Part shown: positions 29,998-47,550 of the stretch, one piece after another
Layout: each line of letters starts with the position of its first letter
How positions within the stretch are numbered: position 1 is the first letter of the stretch
Assembly (NCBI GenBank): GCA_965207065.1
Contig: OZ242260.1
Coordinates: 2,810,017-2,874,016, forward strand
Length of the DNA: 64,000 nucleotides
Direction: 5' to 3'
From: a bacterium
GTDB taxonomy: Bacteria; UBA8248
The notes under the pieces: generated by a model
The model's input: the letters and a program-made list of their open reading frames with translations, nothing else
Databases searched by the model: none
What the model was told of the DNA's origin: nothing
Position numbers and translations under genes: made by a program

Positions 29998-30404
29998 GGG
30001 TTGTCGCTGAGGCTGCGGCGAACGGCGCCGGATTGGCGCGCAACCTCGCCGGGGCATCCTGTTCATGGAGCGACCGCAATCCCTCGTGTCTGATCTTCAT
30101 CGTGCGATTGCAACGCGCAGCGCCTTGCGCCACATGCGGCCTGTTTTTATGTAGCTCAGTCTTCTTCATCGAAAGACGGCATCCGCATTTCCCCGCAATT
30201 GCTGTGTCCAAGTTTCCGCCCGTATGGAGCACAATCCCGCGCGGGAAAAATTGTTCCCGACGACTCAAGGAGGGGAGAACATGGAAACGGCGATTCGGCA
30301 ACCATCGGGATTGTTCTTCTCCCCGATCGGAATCGACCCGCCCGCGTCCCGGAATCGATGGGTAAGAAATAAGCGAAAAAAGCAGAAAACAATTCGATAA
30401 AATT

Positions 30405-30435
30405 AGATAAATTCACGGGGTTTTTCGATAAATTT
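30405..30435 (+). promoter_or_regulatory. 31-bp motif AGATAAATTCACGGGGTTTTTCGATAAATTT, copy 1 (upstream of VOC gene)
   Basis: Identical to the reverse complement of 47936-47966; contains GATAAAT direct repeats; lies in an AT-rich tract. Confidence 0.4.
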
Positions 30436-30539
30436 CCGAGATAAAAAAAGCGGCGGTATGCCATAATTGCGCCTGGAAAAACCGGCGGAAATGAGGGGGG
30501 CGTGCGTCCCCGAACCGATGGCGCAAGAGGAGGCGCGAG

Positions 30540-30983
30540 ATGGGTCTGGTGAGCATCAACCATACGAGTTTCACTGTGTCGGACGCGGTGGCGATAGCCG
30601 GGTGGTACTGCGAAATGCTTGATTTTACTATCGTTTCGGTCGATACCCGGCCCCAGGACTACAGCGAGAAGGTGACGGGCATCACAGGCGCGGACCTGCG
30701 AATCGTCTACATCAAAGGCGGGGGCTACCACATCGAGCTGGTCGAATACGTGGGCGCGCCCGGCGTGAAGATTGACACCGCCACGAACAACGTGGGCAGC
30801 GCGCACATCGCCTATAACGTCAATGATCTCAAAGGGATGTACGAGGCGCTGGGGCCCAAGGGGGTGAGGTTCGTCTCGCCGCCCGTGCCCGTCACGCAAG
30901 GCCCCAACACGGGCGGATTCGTCGTCTATCTCGAGGATCCGGACGGCAACACGCTCGAACTCATCGAGAGGCCGGGCGCGTAA
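30540..30983 (+). CDS. VOC family protein (glyoxalase-like)
   Basis: 147 aa with VOC-fold pattern (INHTSFTVSD, HIELVEY, HIAYNVNDL). Confidence 0.7.
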   Translation: MGLVSINHTSFTVSDAVAIAGWYCEMLDFTIVSVDTRPQDYSEKVTGITGADLRIVYIKGGGYHIELVEYVGAPGVKIDTATNNVGSAHIAYNVNDLKGMYEALGPKGVRFVSPPVPVTQGPNTGGFVVYLEDPDGNTLELIERPGA

Positions 30984-39089: not shown

Positions 39090-41345
39090 GTGGAAATGAC
39101 AGACTATAAAGTCGCGGGCATGGGCCTTACACGAATCGATGCACCTGACAAAGTAGCTGGCAGTGCAAAATATGCGGCTGACGTTCCATCGAGCCGTTCA
39201 CTCATCGGTCTAGTCTTGGGTAGTCCGCATCCGTATGCGAAAGTACTGAGCGTAGATGCGAGTGAGGCGCGTAAGATACCTGGCGTCCGGGCAGTCGTGA
39301 CGCGAGATGACGCCCCCCGCATTCGATTCGGCGCCAACATCAAAGATCAGAGTTGGTTTGCGCAGGATGGCTTTGTTCGATATGGCGGAGAACCTGTGGC
39401 TGCTGTGGCCGCCGAAGATATGGATGCCGCTCAAGCGGCAATTGAATCGATTCAGGTGGACTATGAAGTTTTAGAGCCAGTGGTAAACGGCTTGGACAGC
39501 CGGGCAGGCGAGGGTCTTGCCGTCCACGAAGATTGGCAAGATTTGGGACTTGGCCCGAATGCAGACAAAAACATTATCGCCCGATTTGAAAAAGAAATTG
39601 GAAATGTCGACGCCGGATACAAAGAGGCGGATCGCATTTTTGAGCACACATTTTCTACACCATTCGTACATGCCGGCTATATTGAGCCTCACGCTTGCGT
39701 TGCCGAGGCAGGTGCAGACGGAAAAGTCACAATCTGGACAACCACGCAGGATGCATGGTCCATCCGGGCGGACGTGGCTGAGGCGCTTGGCCTCCCGGCA
39801 ACTCATGTTCGAGTCATTCCTACTGAAATCGGCGGTGGGTTTGGCGCTAAGCTAAAGAGTACTTATGAGCACCTAGCCGCTCTTTTGGCTTTGAAAACTG
39901 ACCAGTCTGTGCGCATGGAGATGACGCGCGAGGAAGATCATATCGGGGTGAATCCGAGACACCCGCATTTCATTACGATCCGCACAGCGGTGAAGAATGA
40001 TGGTACATTTGTCGCTCGGGAGCTTGATGTCACGATGGATCATGGCGCCTATGGCCGAGGCGCACCGTTTCAATGCAGTAGCAAGATGCTGATGGGTTCA
40101 TGCTCGTATCGTATCCCCAACGTTAGGATTCGTGCTTGTACGGTATATACCAATGGCCCCGTTTGTGGTCCCGTGCGTGCTCCCAGCGGTCCCCAGTACC
40201 ACTTTGCCACTGAAGTGCAGATGGACATCATCGCGCGCGAGATGGGGATTGACCCACTCGAGATAAGGCGAATTAATTCCCTTCGGCCTGGAGATGAGAC
40301 GCTGGCTGGGAAGGAGCCGGCTCCGTCCATGCGTAGTGTGCTTGACTCAACTGCCGTGGAAGGCATGTGGGGAAAGAAAATTGAGGCTAACGGAGAGCTC
40401 GAGGGAGATGGCTGGAAGCTCGGCCGCGGCATAGCTTGCGGATATTGGCCGGGTCCTGGGGAGGCGTCTAGTTGCACGGTTCGCCTGAATCAAGACGGCA
40501 CCGTACAAGTGGTAGCGGGAACGGTGAACCTTACGGGTATGAGCACTTCCATATGCCAACTTGCCGCAGAGGAATTGGGCGTTAGTTTGGATGAAGTGCG
40601 GTACACGAACGGAGATACAGATTCGGTTCCCGAATCATCGGCGGCGTCAGGCAGTAAGGCGACGCGCGCGGTTGGAATGGCAACTTTGAGTGCCGCCCGT
40701 GATTTGCGGAACAAAATCTTGAATGTGGCGAGTATAAAACTCGAAGCCGCTGCGGATGATCTGGTTTTGGAAGATGGACAAGTCAAAGTGGCTTCAGCGC
40801 CCGACCGAGCTATGTCTCTTGCACAGGTGGCCAAGGCGGCGCCTGAAATTCAGGGATTTTTAATCGGACAAGGTGAAAGCGCAAAGCCTCCCCCATGTCC
40901 GATACATACCGGACAGGTGGCGGATGTAGCCGTGAATCCGGAGCTTGGTGAGGTCAGGGTTTTGCGCCTTACATGCGTGCAGGACGTGGGATTTGCCATA
41001 AACCCATTGTCCGTGGTGGGACAAATTGAAGGCGCCATGCTCCAGGGACTCGGATTGGCCCTCATGGAAGAGCAACCCAGGCGCCCGGATGGTAATTTGC
41101 ATGGCGATACCTTCCATGAATATCTGATACCTACCAGCATGGATATGCCTGAATTGAATGCCGTTTTGTATGATAACCCGGCCGAGGGTACGCCCTATGG
41201 GATGCGAGGCGTGGGTGAACCGCCCATTGTGGCGACTGCGGCGGCGATTGTGAATGCCATTCAAGACGCTGTTGGTACACCAGTTTTCTCATTACCTGTT
41301 GGCCCGCATCATATTCGAGAGGCTCTGGCTACGAACAGCGTATAA
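39090..41345 (+). CDS. xanthine dehydrogenase/aldehyde oxidase family molybdopterin-binding subunit
   Basis: 751 aa; a/b hammerhead plus MoCo-binding domains (PHACVAEAG, GGGFGAK, GVGEPPIVATAAAI); no adjacent 2Fe-2S or FAD subunit genes. Confidence 0.85.
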   Translation: MEMTDYKVAGMGLTRIDAPDKVAGSAKYAADVPSSRSLIGLVLGSPHPYAKVLSVDASEARKIPGVRAVVTRDDAPRIRFGANIKDQSWFAQDGFVRYGGEPVAAVAAEDMDAAQAAIESIQVDYEVLEPVVNGLDSRAGEGLAVHEDWQDLGLGPNADKNIIARFEKEIGNVDAGYKEADRIFEHTFSTPFVHAGYIEPHACVAEAGADGKVTIWTTTQDAWSIRADVAEALGLPATHVRVIPTEIGGGFGAKLKSTYEHLAALLALKTDQSVRMEMTREEDHIGVNPRHPHFITIRTAVKNDGTFVARELDVTMDHGAYGRGAPFQCSSKMLMGSCSYRIPNVRIRACTVYTNGPVCGPVRAPSGPQYHFATEVQMDIIAREMGIDPLEIRRINSLRPGDETLAGKEPAPSMRSVLDSTAVEGMWGKKIEANGELEGDGWKLGRGIACGYWPGPGEASSCTVRLNQDGTVQVVAGTVNLTGMSTSICQLAAEELGVSLDEVRYTNGDTDSVPESSAASGSKATRAVGMATLSAARDLRNKILNVASIKLEAAADDLVLEDGQVKVASAPDRAMSLAQVAKAAPEIQGFLIGQGESAKPPPCPIHTGQVADVAVNPELGEVRVLRLTCVQDVGFAINPLSVVGQIEGAMLQGLGLALMEEQPRRPDGNLHGDTFHEYLIPTSMDMPELNAVLYDNPAEGTPYGMRGVGEPPIVATAAAIVNAIQDAVGTPVFSLPVGPHHIREALATNSV

Positions 41346-41376
41346 ATCACACCCGATACTTATCAAGGAGAATCCA

Positions 41377-42042
41377 ATGCCTGTAGACGAAGGAACAAGT
41401 TTGCCGGATAGTTTGGGCGTGACCGATGAGATGATGGCATGTCCTTTACCAAGGTTGCCTTTCGTTGATCCTGACAATGTTCCCGACGAACTCAAGGAAG
41501 AACTCGCTCCGCTCTACGATTGGTCGAAACGGATGTGGGGCACTGTCCCACGCTTTTTACAGCTTTTGGGAAATTCACCCCCTACTGTGGAAGGATGGAT
41601 GTTGCTCGACCAGAAGCTCCGTACGAATCGATTGAAAACGGAGTCCGATTACATTCGACTCATGGAACTGGTCATCGTCAAAACGGCCATTTTGACAGAG
41701 TGCAACAACTGAATCGGGCACAATGTGGAGCTCGGTCGAGCTCTGGGTCTTACGCAGGATCAAATCAACATGTTGGAAGGCGATGATTGGAATGAAAGTG
41801 ATTTGTTCGATGACAAGGAGAAAGCCGTTATCCGTTGGGCGGATGAAGTATCGAAGTTCAGAGCGAAGAACAATGACTTCGCATTCAATGAGATGAAAAA
41901 ATATTTCTCCAATCGGCAGATCGTGGAACTCACTTTTATTTGTGGGATGTGGCATCTTTCGGGAAGACTGGCCGAGGCGCTCCACCTGGTTGTGGAACCA
42001 CCGGGAGGGCGCATCGAATTTCAGGCAGAAGACATGGCGTAA
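41377..42042 (+). CDS. carboxymuconolactone decarboxylase/AhpD-like protein with in-frame UGA (probable selenocysteine) at 41710-41712
   Basis: Track ORFs 41254..41712 and 41725..42042 are in the same frame, separated only by TGA; joined sequence ELVIVKTAILTECNN-U-IGHNVELGRALGLT matches the CMD catalytic Cx2Cx3H motif with U replacing the 2nd Cys; aaggag RBS before ATG 41377. Confidence 0.65.
41726..41745 (+). promoter_or_regulatory. SECIS-like hairpin 14 nt downstream of the in-frame UGA
   Basis: ug-GAGCUC-GGUC-GAGCUC-ug: 6-bp GC-rich stem extendable by two G-U pairs, GGUC tetraloop. Confidence 0.4.
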
Positions 42043-42643: not shown

Positions 42644-43504
42644 TTGGAAGAAATTGTGATGGCGACAGACGAACTGACGATTCATCATGAAGACTTGCGT
42701 GGCCGCATTCTCTCAACGGATTCGATGACCTATTTTGACGAAAGGGTTGAAGAACGGGACGTTCTCATTGGAGGCTCTTACGCCGCACGCATGACGATGG
42801 CGTGGGCAATGCGCCTGGGTGCGAGGGCAATCGTTGCCCATGCGGCAGGAGTAGGAAAAGATGACGCGGGTATAAGCGGTCTCCGGTTGGCCCAGGAATA
42901 TCATGTGCCTGCATTGGCATGTGAGACAATGTCCGCAAGACTCGCCGTTGGAGTATCCGTTTATGAAGGCGAAGTCGGCCATGCGAATCAAGTGGCCCAA
43001 AGTCTCGGTGTTGAAATCGGTCAATCCATTGCTGAAGCTTCGAAAATTTTGCTCGATGCCGATGTGGGCCGGGAAGTGATTGTGGAGGAAAGCCTGGATG
43101 ATAGAATTTATGAGCTAGAGCATTTGCCTGATGGTAACATACGCGCTTCATGGGGAATTCCCGTCCTGCGTTCTATCCAGGAACCAAGGCCCCAAGATGT
43201 TTTTATCCAAGCCTCGCATTGCGGACTTACTCTCGTACCGCATGTCATGAAGCTTAATTTAAAGGGTGTTATTGCCAATGATGCAGGACGGGGGAAAGAT
43301 GACTCCGGCATCGCATCTTTCCCCTACCTGGCGCGGGAGGGGATTGCGGTGGCGGCGGTCGGCGCCATGAGTGCGCGAATTGGTGATGTGATGAGCACCT
43401 GGCAGGAAGGCATTATTTCATGCATGAACGAAGTGGCGGAGAAGCGTGGGGTGCGAGAAGGCATGATGACGCGAGAGGCGGCTATCGCAATGCTCAATGC
43501 GTAG
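42644..43504 (+). CDS. hypothetical protein with internal duplication
   Basis: 286 aa; two homologous halves each containing A.G.GKDD(A/S)GI(S/A) (AAGVGKDDAGISGL / DAGRGKDDSGIASF); no family recognised. Confidence 0.5.
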   Translation: MEEIVMATDELTIHHEDLRGRILSTDSMTYFDERVEERDVLIGGSYAARMTMAWAMRLGARAIVAHAAGVGKDDAGISGLRLAQEYHVPALACETMSARLAVGVSVYEGEVGHANQVAQSLGVEIGQSIAEASKILLDADVGREVIVEESLDDRIYELEHLPDGNIRASWGIPVLRSIQEPRPQDVFIQASHCGLTLVPHVMKLNLKGVIANDAGRGKDDSGIASFPYLAREGIAVAAVGAMSARIGDVMSTWQEGIISCMNEVAEKRGVREGMMTREAAIAMLNA

Positions 43505-43522
43505 GATTTACCAGAAATTATC

Positions 43523-43598
43523 TGGTGGAGGTGAGGGGATTCGAACCCCTGACCTCGTGGGTGCGATCCACGCGCTCTCCCATCTGAGCTACACCCCC
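43523..43598 (-). tRNA. tRNA-Ala (anticodon CGC)
   Basis: Minus-strand cloverleaf GGGGGTG-TA-GCTC-AGATGGG-AGAGC-G-CGTGG-ATCGCAC-CCACG-AGGTC-AGGGG-TTCGAAT-CCCCT-CACCTCC-A-CCA; G3:U70 Ala identity pair present. Confidence 0.9.
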
Positions 43599-43953: not shown

Positions 43954-46900
43954 TCAAGAACATCCACTCGTCGCGCCACAAGTCATACATTTCAGGCACG
44001 TCCCGTTTCGCACTAAGGTGAACAAACCACAATCGCTGCAAGCTTCCCCCTCATACCCTTTCGCGCGGGCTTCTTCGATGCGTGAATCAATTGCGGAGCT
44101 TGCTTCCGTTATGGGTGTCATCGAAGTTTGGGTGGATTCTGTCTCATAATTCAGACTTATCCGGTCGCTGCGCGGTGCGCTTGCATCCGGTCCCGGGAAT
44201 ATGGTTTGAATCTCTTCTTCTTCCTCGGTATCGAATTCCGGAATCTCTTCCTGGGGGCGCCCGATGGTGTCGCTCCTCAAGTCCTCCGACACGACTTGCG
44301 CCAGGTCGTGGCGACCGAGATATGAAACCGCCAGTTCACGGAAGATGTAATCGATGATGGATGTGCTCATCTTGATGTGCGGGTTGCCCGAGACCATACC
44401 CCCCGGCTCGAATCGTGTGAATACGAAGGCATCCACGAATTCATCCAATGGGACGCCGTGTTGGAGCCCCAGCGAAATTGCGATGGCGAAACAATTCATG
44501 AGGCTTCTGAAGGCAGCGCCTTCTTTGTGCATATCTATGAAAATTTCGCCGATGGAGCCGTCCTCGTACTCACCGGTTCTAAGATATACCTTGTGACCGC
44601 CAATGACGGCTTTTTGTGTGTATCCACCGCGGCGGGTAGGCAACTTGCGTCTTCTGGACTGGTAAATGATCCGGCGCACAATCTGCTGGGCTACATGCAC
44701 GGGGGCACTTTGGGTAGCTGGTTCTTCTTCGCCGATATCACTGAAGAGTTCTGCTTCGCTTTGTGCGGAAAGTGGTTGGCTTAGTTTCGAGCCATCGCGG
44801 TAAATCGCTATGGCTTTGGTCATCCGCTGCCACGATTCGTTGTAGATGTCTAAAATATCTTGAATCGTTGATTCCGCGGGCATGTTGATGGTTTTGCTGA
44901 TGGCGCCAGATATGAAAGGCTGCGCCGCCGCCATCATTCGAACATGGGCCATGGGGCTGATGAAACGCTTGCCTTCTCGTCCGCATTTGCTCGCGCAATC
45001 AAAAACGGCTAGATGCTCTTCTTTTAGGTGGGGCGCCCCCTCAAGCGTCATTTTCCCGCAAACGAAATCATTCGCTTCGCTGATTTGTTCTGGAGTGAAA
45101 CCAATGGCTTCGAGCAGATTCAGGTTCCAGTCGGCTATTTGCGCTTCGCTGAGCCCTAATTGCTCAATGCAGAAGTCATCACCGAGGGAATGTTTGTTGA
45201 AGGCGAACTGGATTTCAAACGCCCCTTCGAGAGCAGCTTCCACTTTTTCCAGAGCCTTGCTCGTAAACCCTTTCTCGTGCAAAGACTCTGGATTGATATG
45301 AGGAGCATTCGTGAGGGTCCCCCGCCCTCGGCAGTAGGCGACGATTTCGCGGATCTCTTCATCGTCATAGCCTAGATGCCGCAAGGCAGCGGGAACGGAT
45401 TGGTTGATGATCTTGAAATAACCGCCTCCGGCCAGTTTTTTGAATTTCACCAAAGCAAAATCCGGCTCGATTCCCGTTGTGTCACAATCCATCACCAAAC
45501 CAATTGTGCCTGTCGGCGCGATGACAGTGGCTTGTGCGTTCCGGTAGCCGTTTCGATAGCCGATGGCCAAAGCATCATCCCACGCCTCACGCGCCGCTTG
45601 GAGAAGATAATGGGGGCAGATTTCCGCAGCGATTCCTGCTGGTGCCTTCGAGAGCATTTCGTATTCTGCCTCCGGCACAGAATAAGCTGCGCGGCGGTGG
45701 TTTCTCAGAACCCGCAACATGTGCTCTTGGTTGTCCTGATACCTTGAGAAAGCGCCCATTTCCCCTGCCATCTCGGCGCTGGTGGCATACGAGCAGCCGG
45801 TCATGATGGAGGTGAGAGCGCCGCACCATGCTTCCGCTTCAAGTGAGTCGTAAGGGATGCCAAGAACCATTAACAAGGTGCCCAGATTGGCGTACCCAAG
45901 TCCTAAAGTTCGATACTCGAATGAGCGTTTGGCTATTTCCGGACTGGGGAATTGCGCCATCAGTACTGAAATTTCGAGGACGACTGTCCATAGGCGAATA
46001 ACATGACGATAGTCTTCTATCTGAAAGTGGTTTTTTTCAGTATCCAAGAATTTTATGAGATTCATCGACGCTAGATTGCATGCGGTATCATCCAAGAACA
46101 TGTATTCTGAGCAAGGATTAGAGCCGTTGATGCGACCATCGGCGGTGCACGTGTGCCAGTCGTTGATGGTTGTGTCAAATTGAAGGCCAGGGTCTGCGCA
46201 ACACCACGCTGCATATCCAATCTGATTCCAAAGTTCTTTCGAACTGACGGAGTCCGCGATTTCGCCGTCAGTGCGCCGTATCAGGTTCCAATCCGAGTTT
46301 TTCTCGGTAGCTTCCATAAAATCATCTGAAACGCGGATGGAATTGTTCGAGTTTTGACCGGAAACCGAGATGTAGGCCTCGCCTTCCCAATTTGTATCGA
46401 GCTCTTCGAACTCGATTTCGGTGATGCCTTGACGTGCAAGTTGGAGAGTCCGATGGATATAATTATCCGGAACGCCGGCGAGTCTTGCGGCCCGAATTGC
46501 TTTGGTGAGTGATGGGTTTTTATCCGGCTGGTACAAGTTGCCATTCAAGCTCAGGTTCTTTCCTTCCAGGCAAGCCCCGAGAATGGCGTTCATGTGCCGG
46601 TTGCACATCTTGCTGCCCGAAACCAGGGCGGCCACTTTCTGTTCTTCGTGCACCTTCCAGTTGATGAATTCCTCGATGTCGGGGTGGTCGATGTCGAGCG
46701 TGACCATTTTCGCCGCGCGCCGAGTGGTGCCGCCCGACTTGATCGCGCCCGCGGCGCGATCCCCAATCTTGAGGAAACTCATGAGGCCGGAGCTTCTTCC
46801 ACCTCCTGAGAGAGATTCCCCCTCCGCTCTCAAATTCGAGAAATTCGTGCCGGTGCCCGAGCCGTATTTGAAAATGCGCGCCTCGCGCGTCCATAAATTC

Positions 46901-47550
46901 ATGATCCCGCCCTCGTTGACGAGATCATCTTTCACCGATTGGATGAAGCACGCATGCGGTTGAGGACGCTCATAGGCGTTGGTGGAGCGGAGTATTTCCC
47001 CGCTTTCGGGATCGCAATAAAAATGTCCCTGGGCGGGGCGCGTGATGCCGTAGGCCCAGTGCAGGCCCGTATTGAACCACTGTGGCGAGTTGGGGGCCGC
47101 CATCTGGCTCGCTAGTATGTATAAAAGCTCCTCATAGAACGCTTTGGCGTCTTTTTCCGCGTGAAAATAACCGTGTTTCCAGCCCCAATAGGTCCAGCAT
47201 CCCGCCAGGCGATGGAAAACGTCCCGGGCGTCGCGCTCGCTTCCGAATCGCTCATCCTCGGGCAGGGACTCAAGTTTTTCCGTGTCCGGCTCCGAGCGCT
47301 GCAGCCATTCGGGCACTCCCTCTTCGGAAACTTTGTTTAAATGTGTGGGGACGCCGGCTTTTCGGAAGTATTTTTGCGCTAGAATGTCGACGGCCACCTG
47401 AGACCAGCTCTCAGGCGCCATGATGTCCTTCGCTTCGAAGACGACCGAGCCGTCCGGGTTGGTGATGCGCGAGGTGCGCGGCGTGAAACCGACCTCGCCG
47501 TACGCGTCATCTCCGGCCCGGGTGAATCGCCTCGTAAACTCCACGCCCAT
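43954..47550 (-). CDS. nrdJ: adenosylcobalamin-dependent ribonucleotide reductase (class II)
   Basis: 1198 aa; class II RNR layout with Cys-rich C-terminal tail ([22 protein letters not shown]); ggagga RBS before ATG. Confidence 0.9.

Follow-up and report, generated by a model that had tools for sequence, protein, structure and literature searches.

The 64-kb stretch of DNA analysed here (the window) harbors at 41377-42042 a gene of 221 codons followed by a TAA stop codon (42040-42042), which is predicted to encode a selenoprotein of the AhpD-like/CMD family. The gene and the features described around it are located on the + strand, and a Shine-Dalgarno-like AAGGAG, read from the sequence (41365-41370), lies 6 nt 5' of the ATG at 41377. 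The reading frame is continuous except for a single UGA at codon 112 (41710-41712), which we infer to specify selenocysteine (Sec); TGA is found at this codon in homologues, while others carry TGC or TGT. The UGA column corresponds to the second Cys of a CxxC motif. Because Cys occupies this column in homologues (C112 is invariant in 12 that are full length), the local redox motif (TGC AAC AAC TGA, 41701-41712) reads C-N-N-U. The full-length Cys homologues are 50-60% identical.

For profile matching of the product, Cys was put in place of the TGA. The Pfam domain CMD (PF02627) matches residues 95-157, across the UGA, with 23.8 bits against a cut-off of 23. Matches to TIGR01926 ('peroxidase-related enzyme', 33.4 bits) and NF053654 ('YciW-related (seleno)protein', 45.7 bits) were also obtained. 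Since these scores are below the curated cut-offs of 81.8 and 310 bits, respectively, the predicted product is assigned to a subfamily related to, but distinct from, TIGR01926/NF053654. A search with the family profile against the PDB revealed matches across the UGA to the AhpD-like structures 2gmy (Atu0492), 2o4d (PA0269) and 2oyo and to the AhpD structure 6k40, and in these profile alignments the UGA column falls on the second Cys of the CxxC in the solved AhpD-like proteins.

TGA terminates 18 of the 44 long open reading frames in the window, including the ribonucleotide reductase gene. It is therefore the usual stop codon here, and the genetic code is standard rather than reassigned. The GenBank entry for the gene is a 111-residue hypothetical protein that ends at the UGA (MCE2451656.1, MCY4384784.1), and the protein collection searched contained no full-length protein with an X at the UGA codon. 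Our reading would correct this public annotation to a 221-residue AhpD-like selenoprotein.

Immediately upstream, at 39090-41345, lies a gene for a molybdopterin-binding subunit of the xanthine dehydrogenase family (Pfam MoCoBD_1, MoCoBD_2 and Ald_Xan_dh_C). A gap of 31 nt separates its end from the selenoprotein ATG, and co-transcription of the two genes is probable. The orthologue group of Nitrospinota and Tectomicrobia, comprising 31 of the 69 genome loci, has the same upstream neighbor, which also occurs at L001. Farther upstream are a Zn-dependent alcohol dehydrogenase gene and an RND efflux pair, and downstream there follow an open reading frame without a Pfam match, a tRNA-Ala gene and a class II ribonucleotide reductase gene. 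A tRNA scan and Rfam detected no tRNA-Sec in the 64-kb window, and Pfam detected no selA, selB, selC or selD among the 10 neighboring open reading frames. For the genome FO_M_Nitrospinota_01, which bears one of the orthologues (L026), 54 selenoprotein genes have been listed (PMC13326102), and the lineage is therefore selenoprotein-rich.

The hairpin immediately downstream of the UGA

Around the UGA the sequence reads ACA GAG TGC AAC AAC TGA ATC GGG CAC AAT GTG GAG CTC GGT CGA GCT CTG GGT. The first-pass annotation had pointed to a SECIS-like hairpin, GAGCUC-GGUC-GAGCUC, at 41728-41743, and both its letters and its coordinates agree with our analysis. The 5' arm (GAGCUC, 41728-41733) and the 3' arm (GAGCUC, 41738-41743) form six core pairs that enclose the apical loop GGUC (41734-41737), in which G41735 and U41736 match G23 and U24 of E. 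coli fdhF by loop position. In roughly half of the homologues the 3' arm reads GGGCUC. A spacer of 15 nt (41713-41727), which encodes I-G-H-N-V and is invariant in length, separates the UGA from the 6-bp stem, and the loop begins after 21 nt (41713-41733). This distance had been judged to be in the range of bacterial SECIS elements, and it does fall within the published 16-37 nt (PMC13188914). RNAfold predicts the hairpin with an energy of -8.3 kcal/mol for the 16-mer and -10.7 kcal/mol for the 20-mer, and the hairpin is also formed when contexts of 63 nt and 111 nt are folded.

The stem had further been described as extendable by two G-U pairs. In the window these wobble pairs, G41727·U41744 and U41726·G41745, do join the U and G at 41726-41727 to the U and G at 41744-41745 and give an 8-bp stem. 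As a general feature they were rejected, however: they are specific to this clade and are unpaired in 16 and 25 of 61 distinct orthologues. A second local hairpin (41746-41761) and a predicted long-range pairing were likewise set aside, as neither is conserved in the UGA homologues.

Taken from one sequence alone, the hairpin is within chance, and comparative evidence is needed. Fold z-scores against dinucleotide shuffles were not significant (-1.07 for 63 nt and +0.33 for 111 nt). When both strands of the window were scanned with the perfect-stem version of the published bacterial SECIS model, 5.8% of random positions preceded a hairpin that passes the model. A screen of TGAs with at least 60 open codons on either side, in any frame, gave a model-passing hairpin for 6 of ~95, which is the background rate, and only that at 41710 lies in a credible gene. 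No second exact copy of the 16-mer is present in the window, the only other match, with two mismatches, being on the minus strand at 40797-40812. Rfam returned no SECIS family, either at the gathering threshold for the window or at E <= 10 for 41650-41850; its matches to snoRNA, CRISPR and lncRNA families, seen at gathering and permissive thresholds, were discarded as chance hits.

Occurrence of the hairpin in UGA and Cys homologues

Homologues were collected by a genome scan, with one genome per species, that yielded 80 loci. The homologous codon is TGA in 68 of these, which carry the labels Nitrospinota, Candidatus Tectomicrobia, Rhodospirillaceae/Rhodospirillales, Acidimicrobiia, Methyloligellaceae, Candidatus Sulfotelmatobacter and Chthoniobacterales; the close relatives of the source genome are labelled Nitrospinota. 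Two paralogues, each with a TGA, are present in many genomes. A metagenome scan contributed 75 more loci, ~45 with TGA and 27 with TGC or TGT, and five additional Cys forms were added individually. The distinct UGA homologues span at least six phylum-level groups. Loci L072-L082 (Alphaproteobacteria and Betaproteobacteria/Burkholderiales, ~30% identity) gave no alignment to the motif and were omitted.

The apical core of the hairpin, CUC-GG(U/G)C-GRG, is present in all 82 distinct UGA forms and in none of the 19 distinct Cys forms (Fisher p = 6e-21, uncorrected for phylogeny). The median local minimum free energy over 24 nt is -9.7 kcal/mol for the UGA forms compared to -5.3 kcal/mol for the Cys forms (Mann-Whitney p = 8.5e-11). 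The spacing from the UGA to the hairpin is identical and free of indels in all UGA homologues. Of the 82 distinct ones, 81 have a GGUC loop and one (L042) has GGGC. The first-pass annotation had proposed that UGA orthologues without a conserved hairpin would speak against a SECIS; none was found, as all 82 keep the core at a fixed distance. Judged across the homologous sequences, we consider the comparative evidence for the hairpin decisive.

The split between UGA with hairpin and Cys without hairpin is perfect, and as a comparative data set on a bacterial SECIS it is unusually clean. It could serve as a benchmark for SECIS predictors, and it renders the footprint of RNA selection visible on five codons. 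It is also of use for annotation, given the many orthologues and paralogues in MAGs of Nitrospinota-like (UBA8248), Tectomicrobia, Acidimicrobiia and Rhodospirillaceae bacteria.

Base pairing and structural variation of the stem

In alignment A3 the core stem comprises six pairs, 19-34 to 24-29, each of which is formed in 56-61 of the 61 distinct sequences. If the 3' partners are displaced by 1-3 columns, pairing falls from 90% to 18-58%. At pair 23-30, where A and G alternate at 41739, the pair is U·G in 32 and U-A in 29 distinct sequences, and a non-pairing base never occurs. A compensatory change from A-U to G-C was found at pair 20-33 in L042, and the same change is present in a metagenome locus (L118). 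RNAalifold on 62 UGA homologues recovered the core stem only, with a very weak covariation term of -0.26, and no lower stem pairing back to the UGA. True covariation is thus sparse, the stem being near-invariant with one double change in one lineage, so that the support rests on synonymous-site conservation and not on covariation.

Some UGA forms depart from the perfect stem. A single mismatch is present in L034, L016, L062 and the Rhodospirillaceae GGU (Gly) variants, for which the core has an energy of -1.6 to -5.8 kcal/mol; these forms still have the GGUC loop and the three pairs that close it. In the U·G variants, which have the CGG codon, the bare 6-bp core reaches -7.4 kcal/mol and is borderline relative to the threshold of -7.5.

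Synonymous codon usage at the hairpin

Synonymous variation was measured for 67 UGA loci, aligned without gaps over 86 codons. At codon +6 (Glu), GAG is used in 65 of 66 loci, with a synonymous pairwise diversity of 0.03; codon +7 (Leu) is CUC in 67 of 67 (diversity 0.00), codon +8 (Gly) is GGU in 66 of 67 (0.03) and codon +10 (Ala) is GCU in 58 of 61 (0.10). These are the four lowest diversities among 80 degenerate columns, and the chance that the four lowest columns would all fall in a given 5-codon window is 5/C(80,4), or ~3e-6. Elsewhere, Leu, Gly, Arg and Ala columns use 2-6 codons and have diversities of 0.21-0.76, mostly above 0.4, and the synonymous sites of the spacer and flanks vary freely in the UGA loci. 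The Arg at codon +9 is encoded only by CGA (30) and CGG (37) of the six possible codons, each of which places a pairing base opposite U (U-A or U·G). On the antisense strand this alternation would produce a C·A mismatch, which indicates that the constraint acts on the sense RNA.

These data bear on the possibility that the palindrome is a by-product of a conserved E-L-G-R-A-L peptide, with no RNA function and no part in how the UGA is read or terminated. The first-pass annotation had itself named a palindrome kept for its amino acids (ELGRAL) as an outcome that would overturn the SECIS reading. The small amount of stem covariation and the invariance of ELGRA in nearly all UGA forms would fit such an origin. 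However, the synonymous freeze is confined to the hairpin, and Cys homologues that retain ELGR or ELG use other codons and cannot fold: in L083, ELGRS is encoded by GAA CTG GGC CGT TCT, and in L084, ELG is encoded by GAG CTG GGC with CTC as the next codon, in both cases without a hairpin. Other Cys forms vary freely at this site (DLARA, GLGRT, DLAHA and VLGRA), and this variation implies that the protein needs no ELGRA. The frozen synonymous sites, the codons of the Cys forms and the choice of Arg codons lead us to reject the peptide origin as very improbable. From these sequence comparisons, a constraint of the RNA element on the peptide, giving ELGRA in the Sec forms, appears more likely than the reverse. 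Thus, neither of the two outcomes that had been put forward as arguing against a SECIS was observed, and the SECIS reading is supported.

Alternative readings of the UGA and the hairpin

Another explanation is that the gene is split or a pseudogene, in which translation really stops at the UGA, and that the hairpin serves for attenuation, pausing or translational coupling to a separate downstream open reading frame beginning with the GTG at 41725. Public gene callers do give separate products of 111 and 105 amino acids, the first being the 'hypothetical protein' of GenBank. Against this, a single CMD/AhpD domain crosses the UGA, the UGA is located exactly on the catalytic Cys column, and no Shine-Dalgarno sequence is present 5' of the GTG. 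Moreover, more than 80 distinct sequences, drawn from several phyla, share the frame, the spacing and the UGA, a conservation that would not survive decay. We regard a split gene or a pseudogene as highly unlikely.

The hairpin might also drive read-through of the UGA by a standard tRNA, such as that for Trp or Cys, or under a reassigned code, rather than Sec insertion. The observation that favors this is a relative, L002, that has TGG at the UGA codon and an intact hairpin, but L002, in which ~95 codons of the N-terminus are missing, looks to be a copy in decay. The use of TGA as a stop codon in the window, the identity of the loop to the GGUC of the E. coli fdhF SECIS, and membership in a documented CxxU selenoprotein family within a selenoprotein-rich lineage all speak against it, leaving non-Sec read-through with a slight probability.

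Least probable of all is a role of the 16-mer at the level of DNA (a palindrome bound by a protein, or SacI-type sites in tandem), or a conservation that stems from very recent horizontal transfer and not from selection. GAGCTC is self-complementary, and the presence of the gene in MAGs of several phyla suggests transfer. However, the synonymous sites that flank the 16-mer in these sequences have diverged strongly, the A/G polymorphism preserves the RNA pairs (U-A/U·G) while breaking both the DNA palindrome and the antisense RNA, and the 16-mer strictly accompanies the UGA, at a constant distance from it. Even when combined, these four explanations (peptide palindrome, split gene or pseudogene, non-Sec read-through and DNA element) carry only a small share of the probability.

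Discussion

Our analysis makes it very likely that the hairpin at 41728-41743 functions as a bacterial SECIS (bSECIS), through which Sec is inserted at codon 112 of the gene for an AhpD-like redox protein. In the mechanism we propose, the hairpin would still be folded just outside the mRNA entry channel as the ribosome meets the UGA at 41710-41712. The GGUC loop together with the three closing pairs (CUC/GRG) would bind the C-terminal winged-helix domain of SelB in the SelB·GTP·Sec-tRNA(Sec) complex, and the ternary complex, tethered in this way, would out-compete RF2. Sec would then be inserted as the resolving or the peroxidatic residue of the C-x-x-U motif in a gene product of thiol-peroxidase type. 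The binding of SelB, the role of the loop G and U and the incorporation of Sec are extrapolated here from the E. coli and Moorella systems. The mechanism is ordinary, a known mechanism in a known selenoprotein family, and the window hairpin leaves the understanding of Sec decoding unchanged.

A bolder reading, which we consider possible but rather doubtful, is that the gene and its near-invariant 16-nt SECIS constitute a portable module that moved among at least six phylum-level groups, is recognized by SelBs that differ widely and forces E-L-G-R-A onto every Sec form. If this were true, CUC-GGUC-GRG would be a near-universal minimal SelB ligand, and the family would provide a clear natural case of an RNA signal that dictates protein sequence.

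The published bSECIS model, which originates from bSECISearch (Zhang & Gladyshev 2005) as summarised in PMC13188914, specifies a loop of 3-9 nt, a stem of 4-16 bp, a distance of 16-37 nt between UGA and loop and a minimum free energy of -7.5 or lower, with a G within the first two bases of the loop and, for the most part, a G or U after it (PMC13188914). As in the model, the window hairpin is located in the coding sequence right after the UGA, in the same frame and open reading frame. It agrees with every published criterion, having a 4-nt loop that starts with GG, a 6-8 bp stem, a distance of 21 nt and an energy of -8.3 to -10.7. There is no material difference from the model; the window stem is perfect and short.

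For comparison with E. coli fdhF we used the element UGA CAC GGC CCA UCG GUU GCA GGUC UGC ACC, which was verified in 5,413 genomes. It folds with a GGUC tetraloop at nt 22-25, a 6-bp upper stem and a bulged U; U17, G23 and U24 are conserved, and U17 and G23 are SelB-binding sites (PMC8659212). The first-pass annotation had described the window loop as smaller than that of fdhF, which does not really hold, as the verified fdhF sequence folds with the identical tetraloop. The two elements also share an upper stem of ~6 bp and a position just downstream of the UGA. The fixed synonymous U of the GGU codon is as expected if SelB reads the loop G and U. The window element differs in that its loop, at nt 25-28, is 3 nt (one codon) farther from the UGA, its closing pair is C-G instead of A-U, and its perfect stem is devoid of the bulged U (U17/U18; for the U17 requirement see PMC8659212). 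It also has no conserved lower stem toward the UGA. The minimal hairpin of fdhF type starts 11 nt after the UGA, compared to 13 nt (8-bp stem) or 15 nt (6-bp core) in the window.

AhpD-like (COG2128, later TIGR01926) and CMD-domain CxxU selenoproteins with predicted stem-loops were described from the Sargasso Sea in 2005 (PMC1088965), and they are also listed in a 2026 review (PMC13188914) and in BSepDB (PMC13326102). While the window protein differs from these proteins of marine metagenomes (Sargasso Sea 2005, GOS 2008, BSepDB 2026) in scoring below the curated TIGR01926 and NF053654 cut-offs, it shares with them the CMD/AhpD fold and the predicted Sec at the position of the second Cys. In both cases Cys homologues are widespread, a stem-loop is predicted downstream, and the source bacteria are marine or symbionts.

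Annotation of the probable selenoprotein gene

The AhpD-like selenoprotein gene (41377–42042, plus strand) is truncated in existing annotations. Gene callers, including the GenBank annotation, end it at the in-frame UGA (41377–41712), and the public entries are 111-residue "hypothetical proteins" (MCE2451656.1, MCY4384784.1) in a cluster of 43 members. A separate 105-residue ORF starting from the GTG at 41725 is also called by public annotation. In a close relative, L001:6001–6667 (ENA ERZ25071132, a contig at 2x coverage), a frameshift lies upstream of the UGA and yields a chimeric predicted protein, P0019; low coverage makes an assembly error the probable source of this frameshift.

Variation in the hairpin and redox motif

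The predicted SECIS hairpin (41728–41743) and the C-N-N-U motif vary among homologous loci. In the sub-lineage comprising L042:2511–2570 and L118:1534–1590, S-D-Y-U replaces C-N-N-U, with loss of the first Cys, and the stem carries a compensatory change from A-U to G-C (GGGCUC...GAGCCC); the loop of L042 is GGGC. In the loci labelled Rhodospirillaceae (L032, L036–L038, L041, L110–L112 and L158), an Ala to Gly substitution (GCU to GGU) interrupts the stem midway with a G·G mismatch. The two outer positions of these Gly variants form A-U and U-A pairs (AGAGCUC...GAGGUCU), which may partially compensate for the mismatch.

One high-GC relative, L002:365–811 (Logan SRR27730035 contig), has TGG (Trp) at the position of the Sec codon, yet retains the exact hairpin, GAGCTCGGTCGAGCTC, in codons that are unusual for its GC content. 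Because some 95 N-terminal codons are missing from this copy, it is probably decaying or chimeric.

Within the window, a match to the hairpin 16-mer with two mismatches, TAGCTCGGTCGGGCGC, is present at 40797–40812 on the minus strand, antisense to the xanthine-dehydrogenase-family gene. Chance is its likeliest explanation, as 0.2 matches are expected.

A second paralogue

Many of the genomes with homologous loci contain a second paralogue of ~61% identity (L040–L066, L071, L115, L116 and L119), and both copies can be found on one contig, for example OZ244799.1 (L008 and L043). The second paralogue has the motif ..TECNN-U-LGHNVELGRAQGI.., in which TGA occupies the corresponding codon and is accompanied by the same hairpin, the 3' arm of which is GGGCUC. 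It is found without a xanthine-dehydrogenase-family neighbour.

Genomic neighbourhood

Directly downstream of the selenoprotein gene is an ORF at 42644–43504 (plus strand, 286 aa); neither this ORF nor that at 30156–30899 (minus strand, 247 aa) has a Pfam match at E ≤ 1e-5. Downstream of the 286-aa ORF, on the minus strand, lie genes for tRNA-Ala(CGC) (43523–43598) and a class II (B12-dependent) ribonucleotide reductase of 1198 aa with a TSCPD domain (43954–47550). Directly upstream, separated by 31 nt, lies the gene for a xanthine-dehydrogenase-family molybdopterin subunit (39090–41345, plus strand). This pairing is conserved in the window and in 31 of the 69 genome loci, which hints at a functional link between the two genes, with redox maintenance of the molybdoenzyme as one possibility.
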